Source: a virus (taxonomy: Duplodnaviria; Caudoviricetes). From it: a stretch of DNA of 64,000 bases. Below, one piece after another: positions 10,924 to 48,666 of the stretch (its first letter is position 1; the number at the start of each line of letters is the position of its first letter). The position numbers were made by a program, and so were the translations under genes. The stretch spans positions 128,001-192,000 of the IMG/VR virus record IMGVR_UViG_3300029288_000056; one strand, given 5' to 3'. Under the pieces are notes generated by a model. That model did no database searches and was not told where the DNA came from. It saw nothing but the letters and a program-made list of their open reading frames with translations.

Positions 10924-11124
10924 CTACGCTTCCACGGGCTCGTGCCAGTCCAAAACGGCTGGCTCACCAACTACGCCTTTAGAATCACAATTGTAAACCT
11001 CGATGTGTTTGTCGCGGATAAACACGATCCACTCCTTGTTTTCGGGCTCGATCCACCCCACCCAATCAATTCCTTCCGGGTAGGCCTGATATCTCCCAAC
11101 ATCGAGGCGCGGTAACTTAGACAT
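10924..11124 (-). CDS. hypothetical protein
   Basis: Coupled ORF. Confidence 0.6.
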   Translation of the reverse strand: MSKLPRLDVGRYQAYPEGIDWVGWIEPENKEWIVFIRDKHIEVYNCDSKGVVGEPAVLDWHEPVEA

Positions 11125-11774
11125 TAATCCACCCCCTTCGGTATATACTTAAATTCGATTATAGCTTGAACGATAGGTTTAATCCATTCTACACAATAAC
11201 CTACTATCTGATAAAAAGTGCCAGACGACTTACTTATCGGTGTTACCTCAGAGATAAAACCCTTAGACTCTAGGTTTCTCGCGTAAATCTCGGCGATTCT
11301 CTTACTGTGGAAACTTCTCTTGCCTAACAGTATCTTGTCGCTTACCGGCGGTTTGTCTACTTTGTTAAATGTGTTCCATCCTTCCTGTGCTTCTCGAAAG
11401 GAATGATAGAATATATACGGATAAGTATGACATTTATTGCACTTAGGAAGATAAGTATCAGATCCAACCCAACTTACCGTTTCAATACGTATATCGTCGC
11501 TACCGCAGAGCTTGCACGGTCTTAAGATGGGGTGTTGATCCTCGGTCCACGCATAATAAGAGTCGTAGGGTTCATCGGTGCGTACGTCGTCTTCTGGCCG
11601 CCATCCCTTTTTGAATGGGCGCAATCCGTTTCTCTCTAATCGACAAATACACCGGAATGGATCTCCCTCATTACAATGGAATATACAGTCATCAATGGGA
11701 TTGTTCTTGTTCTTACACACACATTCATAGATTTTATTATACCAACCATCTTTCCAACTATTCAATTGATTCAC
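11124..11774 (-). CDS. Lar-like zinc finger fused to a SPOR-like repeat
   Basis: LRPCKLCGS..CNKC..EAQEGWN followed by GKRSFHS...A...L..KGF...VEW. Confidence 0.6.
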   Translation of the reverse strand: MNQLNSWKDGWYNKIYECVCKNKNNPIDDCIFHCNEGDPFRCICRLERNGLRPFKKGWRPEDDVRTDEPYDSYYAWTEDQHPILRPCKLCGSDDIRIETVSWVGSDTYLPKCNKCHTYPYIFYHSFREAQEGWNTFNKVDKPPVSDKILLGKRSFHSKRIAEIYARNLESKGFISEVTPISKSSGTFYQIVGYCVEWIKPIVQAIIEFKYIPKGVD

Positions 11775-12019
11775 CCCTCTTTAAAACAAACACAAACGTC
11801 GTTGGGATTCATATAATCATAATCGTCGTCAACAATAACCCAACAAATCTTTCTGTCACCCTGCGCGATCTCATCTGTTCCAAATGGGCCATGCCCTCTT
11901 CCCCAATGATAACACTTTGCACAACAAGCATCCGTCTGTATTAATATGTTTAATTGTTCAACTAGAACAGGCAGCTCATTGGCGGGCATAGATAAAAATC
12001 TAGGCTTATTTCCTATCAT
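11771..12019 (-). CDS. hypothetical protein
   Basis: Start reset to the ATG with AAGGAG RBS; the longer frame overlaps tRNA-His. Confidence 0.6.
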   Translation of the reverse strand: MIGNKPRFLSMPANELPVLVEQLNILIQTDACCAKCYHWGRGHGPFGTDEIAQGDRKICWVIVDDDYDYMNPNDVCVCFKEG

Positions 12020-12034
12020 AGATCTCCTTTGATG

Positions 12035-12111
12035 GGTGAGCGATGGGAGTCGAACCCACAAAATTACTCGGGTCACAGCCGAGCGCTTTAACCAATTTAG
12101 CTACGCTCACC
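12035..12111 (-). tRNA. tRNA-His(GTG) with encoded G-1
   Basis: G-GTGAGCG/CGCTCAC-C, CTCGG-CTGTGAC-CCGAG. Confidence 0.92.
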
Positions 12112-12115
12112 ATAA

Positions 12116-12244
12116 ACCAGAACAGAATTGCAGAGACAGTTTTTCGGCAGGATTCGAACCTGCGACCTTCGGATGGACTCCGCTGCTCTAACCAACTGAG
12201 CTACGATTCAAATGGCTGAATGTAATCCCTACAGCATTTCTGGT
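12116..12244 (-). ncRNA. tRNA-mimic RNA inside a long closing stem (possible Y RNA relative)
   Basis: Canonical D and T arms, 5-nt pseudo-anticodon loop, closing helices ACCAGAA/TTCTGGT and TGTAGGGA/TCTCTGCA, own promoter. Confidence 0.7.
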
Positions 12245-12251
12245 ATACTAC

Positions 12252-12282
12252 ATATTATCACAAGTCAGTTTAAAAGTCAAGC
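12252..12282 (-). promoter_or_regulatory. conserved phage promoter driving the ncRNA and tRNA-His
   Basis: TTGACT-17-TAATAT, extended TG. Confidence 0.8.
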
Positions 12283-12283
12283 A

Positions 12284-12469
12284 CTATTTATCGAGATAAA
12301 TCGCTTGAACAACCCACGGTTTCTCGGGTGCGCATATAGAATTTTCTTGATTATAGTTAGCAAAAAATCCCATCGTCTTTATACCAATACTTTTCATTTC
12401 TTTTGTCGCAAATTTAATATAACATTTTACTGCTTCTTCATTTACAAAATACTCAGTGTCGATTCGCAT
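12284..12469 (-). CDS. hypothetical protein
   Basis: Coupled ORF. Confidence 0.5.
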   Translation of the reverse strand: MRIDTEYFVNEEAVKCYIKFATKEMKSIGIKTMGFFANYNQENSICAPEKPWVVQAIYLDK

Positions 12470-12657
12470 TCTTCCTCCTTTTTAATATAATCAATATGTA
12501 GCTGCATATTTTCCCGCGACATGCCTTGCGGATATTCACAATACGTAGTCAGCTCCGGGTCCATACCGGCAATATCCTTTATGTTCTTTTCTGTAAGGAT
12601 TACACCAACTGGCTGATCCTCAGAACTATAGATTCGATTCCCCACTACTACTTTCAT
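12442..12657 (-). CDS. hypothetical protein
   Basis: Coupled ORF. Confidence 0.6.
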   Translation of the reverse strand: MKVVVGNRIYSSEDQPVGVILTEKNIKDIAGMDPELTTYCEYPQGMSRENMQLHIDYIKKEEECESTLSIL

Positions 12658-13430
12658 ATTTCTATCTCTCCTTTTAAATACTTTTCAAAATTCTCATCAC
12701 ATTCAAAATGTGGATTAGGAGCTTCACTTAAAATTAAGTTTTGCTGTAGAATGATGACTCTCTTCTGACTAAATCTGTCGTTACCACCGTATCGTTGGAT
12801 ATGCCACGAAGTTGCTTTCGGACAAATGGCAGCCACAAATAGTTCAGCTTTGGCTGCGCTACTAAAAATAAATGATTGCACTATATTTTTATTCATAGCG
12901 TTATCATAAATAAAGACTACAGTCTGTTTACCGTTCCAACAGTCCCCTACTAGTTTTTTGAATTCATCGGTACCATAATCTATCTTAAGTCTACCGTCTT
13001 TAGTCTTGGGATAAACAAGATCTTCAACATCTAAACCCGACCATTTTTGGCACTTTTTAGCATAACTAAAGAACTCATCTGTAGTGGAAAGATTAACATC
13101 TGGAAAAATAACCCGATTTAGATGCGCCATTACTAAGGATTCCTTAGTCTTCGCTTTGATATTATACTCAGCCGCATACTCAATATAATCTTCGTATATA
13201 GATTGCCTCTCACTGTCGAATGATGCCTTATATATTAAATAAGCCACAAATTCGTGTAGGAAATCGTTTTTCATCTTTTCTATTTTTTCTAGCGAATCAC
13301 TGTTAAACCCCATATTGTGCTTTTTATCGTACCATTGGTATTCATACACTCGTGATAGCGGGTAAAATCCTTCCCCGCCACATAATGGTTGTTTACCATC
13401 AAGATTGTCTGTCTGAGTGATTACAAACAT
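12654..13430 (-). CDS. hypothetical protein
   Basis: 258-aa ORF with RBS. Confidence 0.7.
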   Translation of the reverse strand: MFVITQTDNLDGKQPLCGGEGFYPLSRVYEYQWYDKKHNMGFNSDSLEKIEKMKNDFLHEFVAYLIYKASFDSERQSIYEDYIEYAAEYNIKAKTKESLVMAHLNRVIFPDVNLSTTDEFFSYAKKCQKWSGLDVEDLVYPKTKDGRLKIDYGTDEFKKLVGDCWNGKQTVVFIYDNAMNKNIVQSFIFSSAAKAELFVAAICPKATSWHIQRYGGNDRFSQKRVIILQQNLILSEAPNPHFECDENFEKYLKGEIEI

Positions 13431-13832
13431 TTAATTCTCCTCTACCCAACACGACATTGTGTTGTTGGTTAAAATTATAGGCTTTAGGTCGTAAAAACGG
13501 CCTACATACCGAATAGGACTAGGCTCTTCTGGAAGCATTTTTGTAATCAAAAAAGTATCTGTATGAAAGACGATGGGGTTGCCGTCATCCTTCATGGGTT
13601 TAATATAACCCAGCCGTTGAAGAATGTCGTCCAATTCATTGATGTTATCGCAGATCACGTTATGCACAAATCTATACATTTTTCCGTCTAGAGTGAGCGC
13701 AAGATGAAGATCAAAAGGTCGTGTAAATTTTGATTTAAATATCCACTTACCCGTTTCAACTTCATACTCTTTACAATAATGATTAACATTTTGTCCCATT
13801 ACAGGAACAACGTCTCGACGATCAATTATCAT
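13431..13832 (-). CDS. hypothetical protein
   Basis: ORF. Confidence 0.65.
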   Translation of the reverse strand: MIIDRRDVVPVMGQNVNHYCKEYEVETGKWIFKSKFTRPFDLHLALTLDGKMYRFVHNVICDNINELDDILQRLGYIKPMKDDGNPIVFHTDTFLITKMLPEEPSPIRYVGRFYDLKPIILTNNTMSCWVEEN

Positions 13833-29149: not shown

Positions 29150-29634
29150 ACTCTTCCTCGTTCATATACGTCATTAATCCACCACATTATATGATTCATA
29201 GACTTCTCAAAACACTCGGGCGACGCGTCTAAACCGTGAAAGTCTACCCAGATAGTTCGCTGAATGTGGGGTTTGTCAAATTCATAGTGAATCTGTACCT
29301 TCCAAACACCATCTGAAAACAGAGAGGGAATATTTTTAATCGCTATTTTCAACAGCCTCGGTGAAAATCCTAAGCATAGGTGGCCATGACAGGATTCGGG
29401 TAGCGAACCAACCCTACCGTAGGTATCACCCTTCTTATGCCCAGTACACGATCCCATCGAAACTACCCCGTCGTAGCTGTTGATTTTAATCAGCCAAGGG
29501 ATGAGCTCTTCGTCCAATGAGTACGTTGCTTTCGCTTTGAGCTCTTTAGCTTGTGGAATGTCTTCTTCTAATCTTTTCTTTAACAGCCGTTGTAGCCATT
29601 TTGGTATCGCACCTGATTTAGTATAACTTTTCAT
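29146..29634 (-). CDS. TYW3-like protein
   Basis: LD..L...L..INS..G....SC.GH resembles the TYW3 N-terminus. Confidence 0.45.
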   Translation of the reverse strand: MKSYTKSGAIPKWLQRLLKKRLEEDIPQAKELKAKATYSLDEELIPWLIKINSYDGVVSMGSCTGHKKGDTYGRVGSLPESCHGHLCLGFSPRLLKIAIKNIPSLFSDGVWKVQIHYEFDKPHIQRTIWVDFHGLDASPECFEKSMNHIMWWINDVYERGRV

Positions 29635-29670
29635 CCGGTAATCCTCTCAACTTCTTCTTTACCTAACATT

Positions 29671-35845: not shown

Positions 35846-37684
35846 CTATGTTCGTTTCTGTCCGTACAATTCGAACAGAATATCACCGATTAGTTTGTCG
35901 ATCTTTCCCATGTCGTGCTCTGCTGGCAACGTGGACTTCTCGTGAGCCAGAACGATCTCATTCTCAAGATCTTCTTTCATCACAAAGATTTGGTCCAGAG
36001 TATACTCGCCGTTTTTGATTGCGATCAGTTGCTCGGCGTCGATACCCCGACGATCCACATTAATGACTCCGGTCTTGAGGGCTTCAATGCCTTGTCTCAA
36101 CATCAGCACGAGGTAGCAGGCGTTTTTACTATTGCCATGAATAGCTGGCCGTCCATTATTACGCGTAATTAACGTACCATTAGGAACATCGAAGCAAACA
36201 ATTCTATGGTCAGAAACTAGTTTTTCCTTTATATTGTAGCCCGCTTTCTTGCCGCGGGAATCATATTTTATTTCTGCGTTATGCGGCAAAAAGTTACGTT
36301 TATAAATACAATGAAAACCCTTTGTGATATTAGACTTCATAACCTGATACATAGTCGTATCACCATAGGGGCCACCCTTTGTGTCATAACCACCATATAC
36401 TACACAAGGAATACCAGCTATAATCATAATCGCTTGCAAATCATCGGCTAATCGTTTATAACTTGTATAAATTATATCATTCTGCTTTTTTCTTGTGCCA
36501 TCTCCGGCCATCCAAGCATCCCACAGTATCATGGATTGGCGTGCAGATAAATTAAAACACCATAATGGGACATGTTTATAATTTGAGCCGTTATCCCTAT
36601 TACATCCACAATCTTCTAAAATTTGTTTAGCTATTTTCCCATGTAATACCCAAACGGCGCATTTCTCATAATTATAACTTTTAATTGGAAACACACTCAT
36701 GAGATTATCTATTATCTTGCGGTATTCTCCGCATTTCTTTTGGGTAAAAGAAACACACTTAAATTGTCCGTTTTCACGAAATTGAGCAGACCCATCTGAT
36801 AAATATAAACCAACTAGTTGTATGTATTCATCAGATATGTCGTATTCTTTCTGCTTAATATTCGGTATCGTTCTAATATGAAAGCAATCATCTCTTGATT
36901 TCATAAGATTTTCTAATGATATTAATTCCCAATTAGCAGTGCTCTCATTATAAATAATAGAGTGATTATTAGACTTTTGACGATGCGCGTGGGCTAATAG
37001 TAACCTATGGTTAGGTGTTACAATCGCGCGTGAGCTATGGGTATCTATTTGATACATAAAGCCGCTATATAATTGGTCCGTTTTACTATTATAATGTTGA
37101 AATTCTAGCTCCCCATTACTAATATTGAGTGTGGCTAATCTTGTATTGGGATTTATTTCGTCAAATTTTTTCCACCCTGAATCGGTTAGAAATTCGGTTG
37201 TTACCTCTTCGTAACAGTCGTAGCCGTATTTCTCCTCGTATTCTTTTCTTACTCTTCCGCGCTCACCTTGTCTCAACTTACCGATCAGCTTTTGGTACTG
37301 ATTATAGGCAAAGCCTCTGAAAGTACCGAACAGCTTCTTAGTGATGAACAAGTCTCTATTTTCCATCAGCCTTTCCCAGATCTCGTGCTTATAAGACACG
37401 AACTCATCAGGAAAGAATAGAGTATTCAGGATGCTCGGATTCGAATTGCTCAAGAGCTTCACGTACTTTTGGATCTCATAGATTAGAACGTCGTAGTCGT
37501 CTCGTTGAATTTCTACTTGTTCCCATCTGTTAAGTTCCCAAAAGTCTTTCGGATCAAGGTAAGACACACCAAAGACGTCAGTATCGTGATGTGAAGTCTT
37601 AATGCCAAACACATCACTACCGCGATAACTCAGGAACAATGGTGTCCTGAGCGCTTCAATCTCAAATGGAATCTCTAGTTTCAT
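35846..37684 (-). CDS. Pol-beta-type nucleotidyltransferase (YcgL/RlaP/NrdC.11-like) interrupted by an intein
   Basis: GS.VFG.....DTD, NP.IL, YGYD|intein|SKNA. Confidence 0.85.
   Translation of the reverse strand: MKLEIPFEIEALRTPLFLSYRGSDVFGIKTSHHDTDVFGVSYLDPKDFWELNRWEQVEIQRDDYDVLIYEIQKYVKLLSNSNPSILNTLFFPDEFVSYKHEIWERLMENRDLFITKKLFGTFRGFAYNQYQKLIGKLRQGERGRVRKEYEEKYGYDCYEEVTTEFLTDSGWKKFDEINPNTRLATLNISNGELEFQHYNSKTDQLYSGFMYQIDTHSSRAIVTPNHRLLLAHAHRQKSNNHSIIYNESTANWELISLENLMKSRDDCFHIRTIPNIKQKEYDISDEYIQLVGLYLSDGSAQFRENGQFKCVSFTQKKCGEYRKIIDNLMSVFPIKSYNYEKCAVWVLHGKIAKQILEDCGCNRDNGSNYKHVPLWCFNLSARQSMILWDAWMAGDGTRKKQNDIIYTSYKRLADDLQAIMIIAGIPCVVYGGYDTKGGPYGDTTMYQVMKSNITKGFHCIYKRNFLPHNAEIKYDSRGKKAGYNIKEKLVSDHRIVCFDVPNGTLITRNNGRPAIHGNSKNACYLVLMLRQGIEALKTGVINVDRRGIDAEQLIAIKNGEYTLDQIFVMKEDLENEIVLAHEKSTLPAEHDMGKIDKLIGDILFELYGQKRT
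36131..37216 (-). mobile_element. intein with LAGLIDADG endonuclease (362 aa)
   Basis: Starts CYEEVTTEFLT.SGWK, TPNH block B, LVGLYLSDG and AWMAGDG, ends HGN before Ser+1. Confidence 0.88.
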
Positions 37685-48294: not shown

Positions 48295-48341
48295 CTCGTA
48301 AGGATTACTTACAAGTTCAAAAACTAGTGTTGGTCAAGCTT

Positions 48342-48666
48342 TGGAAGCGCCGGGTACTGCCCCCGGGTCCGATAAAAGGCTCCTACAAAATTCACTCACA
48401 AGCTTAGCATCTACCTGATGCAAGGTACTAACTTTTTTGTTTTGCCACTTAATTTCGCAACAAGACCGTGGCCTTCTCATTGCTAGATTGTTTTCCGAGC
48501 GTTACTCCTGCCAACAATCAATTTCGGGTAACGCCCTAGTTTCAAGAACTAGGAAGTAGTTTTTAGGCTGCTTTTATTGTTCTGTCGGTTCTTTAACGAC
48601 CACTCCAACAGAAAGGTCGGCTTGCATTCTGTATCTCCATTCTACCGTCGAATCTGAGTCGCTCCC
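48342..48666 (-). ncRNA. ssrA: tmRNA
   Basis: GGGAGCG/CGCTTCC-A with G3:U, GATTCGAC, pk1-like region, resume context ATAAAA-GCA, GGAC plus T arm. Confidence 0.92.

Follow-up and report, generated by a model that had tools for sequence, protein, structure and literature searches.

The minus strand of a phage genome encodes, at 12244..12116 of the window, a 129-nucleotide (nt) RNA that is in all likelihood a Y RNA of the phage's own Ro60 system. By the window we mean the whole 64,000-nt stretch analysed, bases 128001-192000 of the 297,328-bp virus record IMGVR_UViG_3300029288_000056 (hereafter G000; CheckV completeness estimate 94%). The element consists of two successive stems and a tRNA-like core, and a sequence-only reading of the window had already likened it to Y RNAs. 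That likeness is now supported by a Ro60 gene in the same genome, a near-copy of the element's stem beside that gene, a stem layout of the YrlA kind, and flanking helices that are conserved and covary in relatives. Judged from its sequence, the element would fit the broad definition of a Y RNA save for adjacency to Ro60 and proof of binding.

Structure of the element

The 5′ and 3′ termini of this RNA form a long stem (all coordinates of the element refer to the minus strand). Its outer, terminal helix, which also occurs in an RNA beside Ro60, joins ACCAGAA (12244..12238) to UUCUGGU (TTCTGGT in the DNA, 12122..12116) through 7 bp, and its inner helix joins GUAGGGAU (DNA GTAGGGAT, 12232..12225) to GUCUCUGC (DNA GTCTCTGC, 12137..12130) through 8 bp, or 9 if U12-A116 is counted. 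Between the two helices lie a 5′ internal loop, AUGCU (12237..12233), and a 3′ internal loop, AAUUCUG (12129..12123). This is the layout of the Rfam YrlA consensus stem, in which helices of 6 and 7 bp enclose AUGCu on one side and a loop of 8 nt on the 3′ side. It also gives the element the long end-to-end stem with a Ro60-binding site that marks Y RNAs, here 7-bp and 8-bp helices around an AUGCU/AAUUCUG loop, the binding site itself being predicted.

Above the stem, a conserved UACAU junction and a small hairpin (UUCA/UGAA, loop GCCAUU; together 12224..12207) lead into an unpermuted tRNA-like core (12206..12144), which is connected back to the inner helix by an A-rich junction, AAAACU (12143..12138), that is A-rich in relatives too. 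With the Rfam tRNA model (RF00005) the core scores 41.4 bits, above the gathering score of 29, although the match takes in only model positions 5-66. Within that span the core is a cloverleaf: a standard D arm (12201..12185), then an arm where the anticodon arm would be (12183..12169), a variable region of 5 nt whose last nucleotide is C48, and a standard T arm (12163..12147) with a UUCGAAU loop. The nucleotides of the tRNA elbow and its tertiary pairs (U8, A9, A14, G15:C48, G18G19 and U54-U55-C56), as read from the Rfam alignment, are all present. The anticodon-position arm has 4 bp plus a G.A mismatch and closes on GUCCA, a loop of 5 nt in place of the 7 nt of an anticodon loop. The acceptor remnant is 3 bp (UCG/CGA) enclosed within the stem, and there is no 7-bp acceptor stem with a free 3′ end. 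ARAGORN called 14 tRNAs across the window and none at the element.

These details agree closely with the sequence-only reading. It had paired the same outer strands and had quoted an inner helix, TGTAGGGA/TCTCTGCA, that falls inside the GTAGGGAT/GTCTCTGC helix. It had also picked out the same D and T arms, the 5-nt pseudo-anticodon loop and the 3 bp of acceptor stem, and its statement that the D, anticodon and T arms do not follow the permuted order of YrlA is upheld by the Rfam tRNA alignment. The element is not a tRNA, since both the full acceptor stem and the anticodon loop are missing, nor is it a YrlA RNA in the Rfam sense. With no usable anticodon loop and no free acceptor end it cannot decode, and the earlier expectation that it should not be chargeable is a reasonable inference.

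The predicted fold of the whole RNA (−43.0 kcal/mol) was more stable than that of shuffled sequences (mean −32.2, standard deviation 3.6, z = −3.0), none of 200 shuffles being as stable. The minimum-energy fold retains both stems and loses the cloverleaf, so support for the cloverleaf comes from the Rfam match and from covariation. An identical element was recovered from a groundwater sequencing run of another study (12055-12251, 0 differences).

A Ro60 gene and a family of related stems

The sequence-only reading had correctly stated that the window contains no Ro60 gene and had suggested looking elsewhere in the phage. A Pfam TROVE search of the record identified a 520-aa Ro60 orthologue at G000:240170-241732, on the same strand as the element and about 100 kb away (vWA_Ro60, 1e-16; TROVE, 3.2e-5), so that an Ro60/Rsr orthologue is encoded in the same genome. 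The best match of this protein to a PDB sequence is the Deinococcus radiodurans Rsr (2nvo, 3.9e-19), covering residues 15-502 of 520, followed by the Ro60 of Thermus phage phiLo (9l5y/9kop, 9.8e-16) and then by human and Xenopus Ro60.

Directly after the Ro60 stop codon lies a YrlA-like RNA that matches the full RF02553 model with 52.8 bits (E 2.4e-10), where the gathering score is 69, and has the permuted order of T arm, closed acceptor hairpin and D arm. A second RNA follows immediately. It has no tRNA-like part, and its stem is a near-copy of that of the element: the 5′ strands are 93% identical over 27 nt and the 3′ strands, compared by reading, are identical at 13 of 14 positions.

A motif scan of the genome combined with a test for a closing helix found seven Y-like RNAs, all on the coding strand. 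In G000:C1 coordinates on the minus strand they lie at 275487..275361 (followed by a tRNA), 241845..241773, 240106..239974, 239966..239846, 239065..238981, 140244..140116 (the element) and 29645..29559; four of the seven flank Ro60. Besides the element, two are permuted tRNA mimics of the YrlA type and four carry other hairpin heads. Full-model RF02553 scores were obtained for three of the seven (52.8, 43.6 and 28.1 bits), compared with 17.1 bits for the element. The outer helices are perfect in every copy and 6-7 bp long, and their sequences differ and covary between copies (UAGAGAA/UUCUCUA twice, GAUGGGA/UCCCAUC, UUCGGGA/UCCCGAA, ACCAGAA/UUCUGGU twice, CCAGAA/UUCUGG). The AUGCU loop, which the Rfam YrlA consensus shares, the inner helix and the UACAU junction are kept in all seven. 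An eighth motif match, GAGAAAUGCGCC...UAUUACAUGG near window position 36663 (G000:164663, minus strand), was dropped for having no closing helix within 190 nt and is probably a chance match inside coding sequence.

We then compared Ro60 loci of relatives, fetched by alignment of two Ro60 proteins and comprising 6 viral and 20 bacterial loci whose Ro60 is 39-50% identical. The stem motif, closed by a 6-bp helix and on the Ro60 strand, occurred at 22 of these 26 loci, as a rule in tandem sets right after the Ro60 stop codon; the same test found no such motif at L179, L009, L010 or L014. The viral relative G002 also carries a small RNA with this kind of stem inside a tRNA array far from Ro60, so dispersal of Y RNA genes is not unique to the phage studied here. 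Just downstream of Ro60 in a Phycisphaerae metagenome-assembled genome (L175:3852-3969, plus strand), we observed a bacterial Y RNA with the same stem whose head consists of hairpins, with a T arm last, adjoining the 3′ strand, and no recognisable D arm, giving a Yrn1-like order in a planctomycete.

The unpermuted type in related phages

Five distinct sequences carry a normally ordered tRNA core on this stem, namely the element, L019 (from viral contig G004), L023 (from G005), L075 (the same as L062) and L017 (the same as L055). In both G004 and G005 the copy belongs to an array of Y-like RNAs and is encoded on the Ro60 strand, about 0.5 kb downstream of that gene. With RNAalifold on an unsupervised MAFFT alignment of the five, 30 pairs were predicted, 17 of them with a compensatory change, and these pairs cover both stems as well as the D, anticodon-position and T stems. 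In the inner helix, 95.6% of cells were paired and five of nine pairs showed compensatory change. On an alignment fitted to our model of the type, R1, 90.6% of cells were paired compared with 74.7% (standard deviation 2.2) in shuffles, none of 500 shuffles reaching the observed value, and controls in which the partner strand was slid by 1-3 columns gave 38-48% paired (maximum 47.9%). The sequence-only reading had named non-conserved flanking helices around a decayed tRNA core as the outcome that would speak against it; the helices turned out to be conserved and to covary in relatives.

The loop at the anticodon position and the acceptor end differ among the five. Loops at the anticodon position are GUCCA in the element, GAAA in L019, UUAAUAG in L023, CUAAACA in L075 and CUACGAA in L017; these are unrelated in sequence and measure 5, 4, 7, 7 and 7 nt. 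Given this variation in length and sequence, these stem-mounted tRNA mimics do not decode. ARAGORN calls two of the five cores as tRNAs, with the anticodons AAU and AAA, in two close relatives; neither anticodon is known to be used by bacterial tRNAs. The element and L019 have common flanks around the shortened arm, and the Ro60 proteins of the two phages are 43% identical, which indicates that the shortening is old rather than a recent decay. The acceptor stem is 3 bp in the element, 5 of 7 bp in L023 (by count) and 6 of 7 bp in L019, where it is followed by G-CCA. An NCCA sequence occupies the true 3′ position in this one RNA and a hairpin loop in the other four, whose 5′-side hairpins carry CCA in the loops GCCAUU, UCCAACAAC and UCCAACAUC; the hairpin stems differ in sequence, equivalents of the element's being present in L023, L075 and L017. 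This placement of CCA was spotted after the fact and may be due to chance.

How widely the type is distributed was assessed by several searches. In its own genome the element scored 115.3 bits with model R1 and the next match, an ordinary tRNA(CAU), 47.6 bits, so this search revealed no second copy of the unpermuted type there. Across the viral records G001-G005 the model identified copies in G004 and G005 alone. The 14 other whole-model matches that we inspected in these records were 12 ordinary tRNAs (9 of them called by ARAGORN), one small Y RNA and one region in L011; the inspection covered the higher-scoring matches among those that span the whole model. At the 20 bacterial and four viral Ro60 loci searched with R1 the type was not found (best score 43.6 bits, 16 matches inspected). 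The contig that holds L017, G006, is a fragment of 12 kb and gave no match to Ro60, an uninformative result. A blastn search of window positions 11000-13500 against 50,697 deposited phage records matched 168 of them; among the 30 matches listed only the tRNA-His gene or the tRNA core was aligned and never the stems, so that there is no close relative among those deposited records. Of two strict DNA patterns run on viral contigs, one gave no match and the other only the G004 copy. A looser pattern returned 9 viral and at least 116 metagenome stretches; from 124 matches screened, seven were kept, corresponding to four distinct relatives, the remainder being mostly ordinary tRNAs with the upstream motif by chance.

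Two observations from these searches concern other RNAs. The L011 region (L011:5804-5926, plus strand, viral contig G003) is a 123-nt Rfam 'tRNA' (50.7 bits) with a full GGGGGGG/CCCCCCC acceptor stem and D and T arms, in which an insert of about 60 nt at the anticodon position holds the 5′ motif of the Y stem, GGAUGCUGGUAGGAGUACAUCC, and a matching CCUACC...CUUUGCCG follows the tRNA 3′ end; its fold is ambiguous, and it may be an overlapping or hybrid tRNA/Y RNA. We also encountered a separate, recurrent and near-identical tRNA-like core (D arm GCUUAACUGGUAAAGC, T arm UUCAGUUCGAAUCUGAA) with a variable 7-8-nt loop at the anticodon position, which sits on a different long stem, AAAUACAUUA / UAAUGUAUU. 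It occurs in viral L016, L018, L020, L021 and L024 and in metagenomic L046, L059, L070, L111, L126-L128, L133 and L134, and would seem to be a further class of tRNA mimic on a stem, borne by other phage contigs.

Promoter and transcription unit

A consensus scan placed a promoter on the minus strand upstream of the element, with a −35 element TTGACT (12280..12275), a 17-nt spacer and a TG-extended −10 element TAATAT (12257..12252) that ends 8 nt before the first A of ACCAGAA. This promoter is a member of a phage family defined by the 9-mer GCTTGACTT, which contains the −35 element and lies here at 12274..12282 (minus strand; genome position 140282). Genome-wide the 9-mer occurs 47 times on the coding (minus) strand and 4 times on the other, where about 1.5 copies per strand are expected, and as a rule it has an A-rich stretch upstream and a TG-extended −10 downstream. 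Both the scan and membership of this 47-copy family support the earlier prediction of a promoter for this RNA. Most copies of the 9-mer lie a few bases upstream of a ribosome-binding site.

Five nucleotides downstream of the element is a tRNA-His(GUG) gene with an encoded G-1 (12111..12034, minus strand), and no terminator was seen between the two; they are probably on one transcript. The promoter would then yield a two-gene precursor of element and tRNA-His, in which RNase P, by cutting at the 5′ end of tRNA-His, would also define the 3′ end of the element and leave it a 4-5-nt tail. A precedent for a Y RNA co-transcribed with a tRNA is provided by D. radiodurans, in which Yrn2, tRNA-Asp and Yrn1 derive from one precursor according to the portion of Chen et al. 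2014 consulted (PMC4201824), the portion to which all statements from that paper here refer.

RNA-repair genes and other neighbours

The phage genome further encodes RtcB, whose 750-aa frame is some 50 kb away from Ro60, and three proteins with RNA-ligase-family matches, along with many tRNAs and a transfer-messenger RNA (tmRNA), which makes a role for the element in RNA surveillance or repair plausible. A link between Ro60 and RNA repair has been drawn for jumbo phages in general, as far as the consulted part of Iyer et al. 2021 (PMC7824862) goes. A search of the phage for a PNPase-type RNase PH domain found none.

Several of these genes have features of their own. The RtcB frame (G000:C1:291176-293347, minus strand) matches the model in two pieces, positions 1-50 and 46-425, lying about 900 nt apart within a single open frame, and looks like it contains an intein or another in-frame insertion. 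An ATP-dependent ligase with a DNA_ligase_A_M domain and an OB-like domain (L157:10967-11947, minus strand; G000:C1:241967-242947) is followed directly by tRNA-Trp, a small Y RNA and Ro60, and may be functionally linked to Ro60. A TnpB-like gene with OrfB_IS605 and Cas12f1-like TNB domains (L157:15167-16378, minus strand; G000:C1:246167-247378) lies about 4.4 kb from Ro60. The phage tmRNA is at window positions 48341..48666 (minus strand, Rfam 72.9 bits), and in the related contig G005 a tmRNA comes right after the Y RNA array (L013:6629-7044, 130.4 bits). The 480-kb viral record G001 encodes a tRNA with the anticodon CUA, an amber suppressor labelled tRNA-Pyl by ARAGORN (L195:64-136, plus strand; G001:C1:173183-173255), which hints that TAG may be read through or recoded in that phage.

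Weighing the alternatives

Several findings weigh against assigning the element to the Ro60 system. The search with the YrlA model, which the sequence-only reading had put forward as a check, did not come out in its favour: the element scored 17.1-20.3 bits where RF02553 has a gathering score of 69, and the 20.3-bit match is a false join in that it takes the T arm from the element and the D arm from tRNA-His. Near their 5′ end YrlA RNAs have a GNCGAAN0-1G motif (Chen et al. 2014, PMC4201824); the element does not have it literally but as a variant, CCAGAAAUG, and the phage's own 52.8-bit YrlA-like RNA has a variant too, UCGGGAAUG. Lying about 100 kb from Ro60, although on the same strand, the element is not encoded near Ro60 in the sense of Chen et al. 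2014 (PMC4201824); the corresponding RNAs of G004 and G005 are, being about 0.5 kb downstream of the gene. The covariation derives from five sequences of about four lineages, partly on a model-fitted alignment, and serves as description rather than as a formal test. On the R1-fitted alignment the outer-helix columns were paired in only 74.3% of cells, which reflects register shifts, the helix being perfect in each of the five sequences taken singly. Finally, model R1 did not reveal the type in three of six viral Ro60 relatives (G001, G002 and G003), nor next to Ro60 at any of the 20 bacterial loci.

Could the stem instead be a leader and trailer that are cut away? In such a scheme RNase P and 3′ nucleases would process the precursor to a free, anticodon-less RNA of tRNA shape, which would act alone as a decoy or as a ligand of a tRNA-binding enzyme, whether bound by Ro60 or not. 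The element does lie inside a tRNA transcription unit, L019 of G004 has 6 of 7 acceptor pairs and G-CCA at the canonical 3′ position, and in Mycobacterium smegmatis RNase P cleaves YrlA and CCA is added to it (PMC4201824). The acceptor remnant of the element is, however, only 3 bp, and the flanks are not arbitrary sequence but the conserved stem seen beside Ro60 genes. Cleavage would moreover be compatible with a role as Y RNA, and we regard the scheme as improbable. A function without Ro60, in which the RNA is a decoy or sponge that occupies a tRNA-targeting defence nuclease of the host or a tRNA-modifying enzyme and the stem serves for stability only, would suit the intact elbow nucleotides and the phage's heavy investment in tRNAs and RNA repair (14 tRNAs and a tmRNA in the window, RtcB and three ligase-family matches in the genome). 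Anticodon nucleases recognise the anticodon loop, which in these RNAs is missing or unconserved, and there is no free 3′ end to attract toxins that act on acceptor ends. Sequence conservation of the stem and its linkage to Ro60 would also go unexplained, making a decoy of this kind distinctly unlikely.

The simplest alternative, a decayed tRNA pseudogene whose flanks pair by chance, would account for the absence of an ARAGORN call and for the defective acceptor stem and anticodon loop. It is contradicted by covariation in relatives and by the seven-copy stem family: phages whose Ro60 proteins are only 39-43% identical retain both stems and the truncated arm, with compensatory changes, and the stem of the element is one of seven in the genome. 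None of 200 shuffles folds as well, and the RNA has its own promoter of the family type. We therefore consider decay highly implausible.

Proposed mechanism and significance

If the element is a Y RNA of the phage's Ro60 system, as we favour, the phage Ro60 would bind the stem, comprising the outer helix, the AUGCU loop, the inner helix and the UACAU junction, while the other end would present a nearly complete tRNA mimic in normal order to a partner. By analogy with Yrn1 and YrlA, the tRNA module would tether Ro60 to a partner that recognises the shape of tRNA or to the host polynucleotide phosphorylase (PNPase), or would shield the RNA from nucleases. RNA quality control or repair during infection would be the likely setting.

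A broader proposal, which we put forward tentatively and hold to be rather unlikely, is that phages of this giant group run Ro60 with a library of Y RNAs (at least seven here) scattered among tRNA genes, in which one docking stem tracks the phage's own Ro60 and the heads are interchangeable. The element would then be a distinct, conserved type of head, with a full-length tRNA body in normal order, its anticodon removed and NCCA beside the acceptor end. Were this so, the RNA could deliver Ro60 to enzymes that recognise a tRNA by its acceptor end or elbow, such as RtcB, the ligases, the CCA-adding enzyme and RNase P, forming a phage particle for tRNA surveillance and repair against tRNA-cutting host nucleases.

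It was known before that bacterial and phage Y RNAs mimic tRNA and that the well-defined class, YrlA, is circularly permuted; Yrn1 is the only normally ordered example in the literature consulted and is described as a weak mimic (PMC4201824). We found no description of an RNA like the element in the literature searched; reviews and the supplements of Chen et al. 2014 might hold one. The element and its four relatives would thus be clear cases of a complete normal-order tRNA body on a Ro60-docking stem. The occurrence of permuted and normal topologies in one phage suggests that selection acts on the shape of tRNA and not on a particular way of constructing it. Matched RNAs of both topologies would also serve the question of which partner the tRNA module binds, stated to be open in the parts seen of Chen et al. 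2014 (PMC4201824) and of the preprint by Wang et al. 2018 (10.1101/312249). Y RNA genes can, moreover, sit far from Ro60 within tRNA arrays, where a search confined to the surroundings of Ro60 would overlook them.

Comparison with known systems

In Y RNAs one stem binds Ro60 and a second module binds other factors (Chen et al. 2014, PMC4201824). YrlA RNAs, reported there from Salmonella, M. smegmatis and 22 phages, mimic tRNA in a permuted form. The element resembles YrlA (RF02553) in its outer helix, AUGCU loop and inner helix and in having a tRNA-mimic module with D and T arms, and two true YrlA-type RNAs are present in the same phage. In YrlA, however, the order is T arm, closed acceptor hairpin and D arm, and the stem replaces the anticodon stem. 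The element, by contrast, has the order D arm, anticodon-position arm, variable region and T arm, with a closed short hairpin at the anticodon position and the stem joined to the acceptor end.

Systems in which Ro60, Y RNAs and RNA-processing enzymes are combined offer a second comparison. Thermus phage phiLo, according to the accessible part of PMC12135203, has a Ro60 to which two Y-like RNAs of the phage bind and which joins host PNPase in a RYPER-like complex. Here too, phage Ro60 occurs together with phage Y-like RNAs, and the phage also has no PNPase-type RNase PH domain. The phiLo RNAs Yrl1 and Yrl2 lie directly upstream of Ro60, and the same part of that paper mentions no tRNA-like module in them, whereas in the present phage seven RNAs are spread genome-wide. 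The Salmonella rsr-yrlBA-rtcBA RNA repair operon likewise combines Ro60, several Y RNAs and RtcB in one genome (PMC7790460, seen in part); the phage does not keep these genes together in an operon, its RtcB gene being about 50 kb from Ro60.

The closest described topology is that of D. radiodurans Yrn1, whose D-like and T arms are in the opposite orientation to those of YrlA and whose 'anticodon arm' has 5 bp and a 6-nt loop (PMC4201824). Yrn1 tethers Rsr to PNPase, the role of the tRNA module being stated as open in the consulted part of Wang et al. 2018 (10.1101/312249). Like the element, it has a terminal Ro60-binding stem formed from its 5′ and 3′ ends (binding by the element is predicted) and is co-transcribed with a tRNA, as the element probably is. 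The order of a D-like region, an 'anticodon arm' with a 5-bp stem and a loop shorter than 7 nt, and a T arm is also common to both (PMC4201824). Compared with the description of Yrn1 in that paper rather than with its sequence, the element has all the parts of this type, namely a D-like arm, an anticodon-like arm and a T arm within a Ro60 stem, and the shared D-anticodon-T order places the stem at the acceptor end and not at the anticodon end. Yrn1 is described as having no full D arm and no variable arm, its likeness to tRNA being 'less evident', whereas in the element the D and T arms are complete, the variable region measures 5 nt and the nucleotides of the tertiary pairs are present. The stems differ as well, that of Yrn1 being metazoan-like according to the paper and that of the element being of the YrlA type with an AUGC loop (PMC4201824). 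The element is thus an RNA of the topology described for Yrn1, with a far more complete tRNA body and a stem of the YrlA type.

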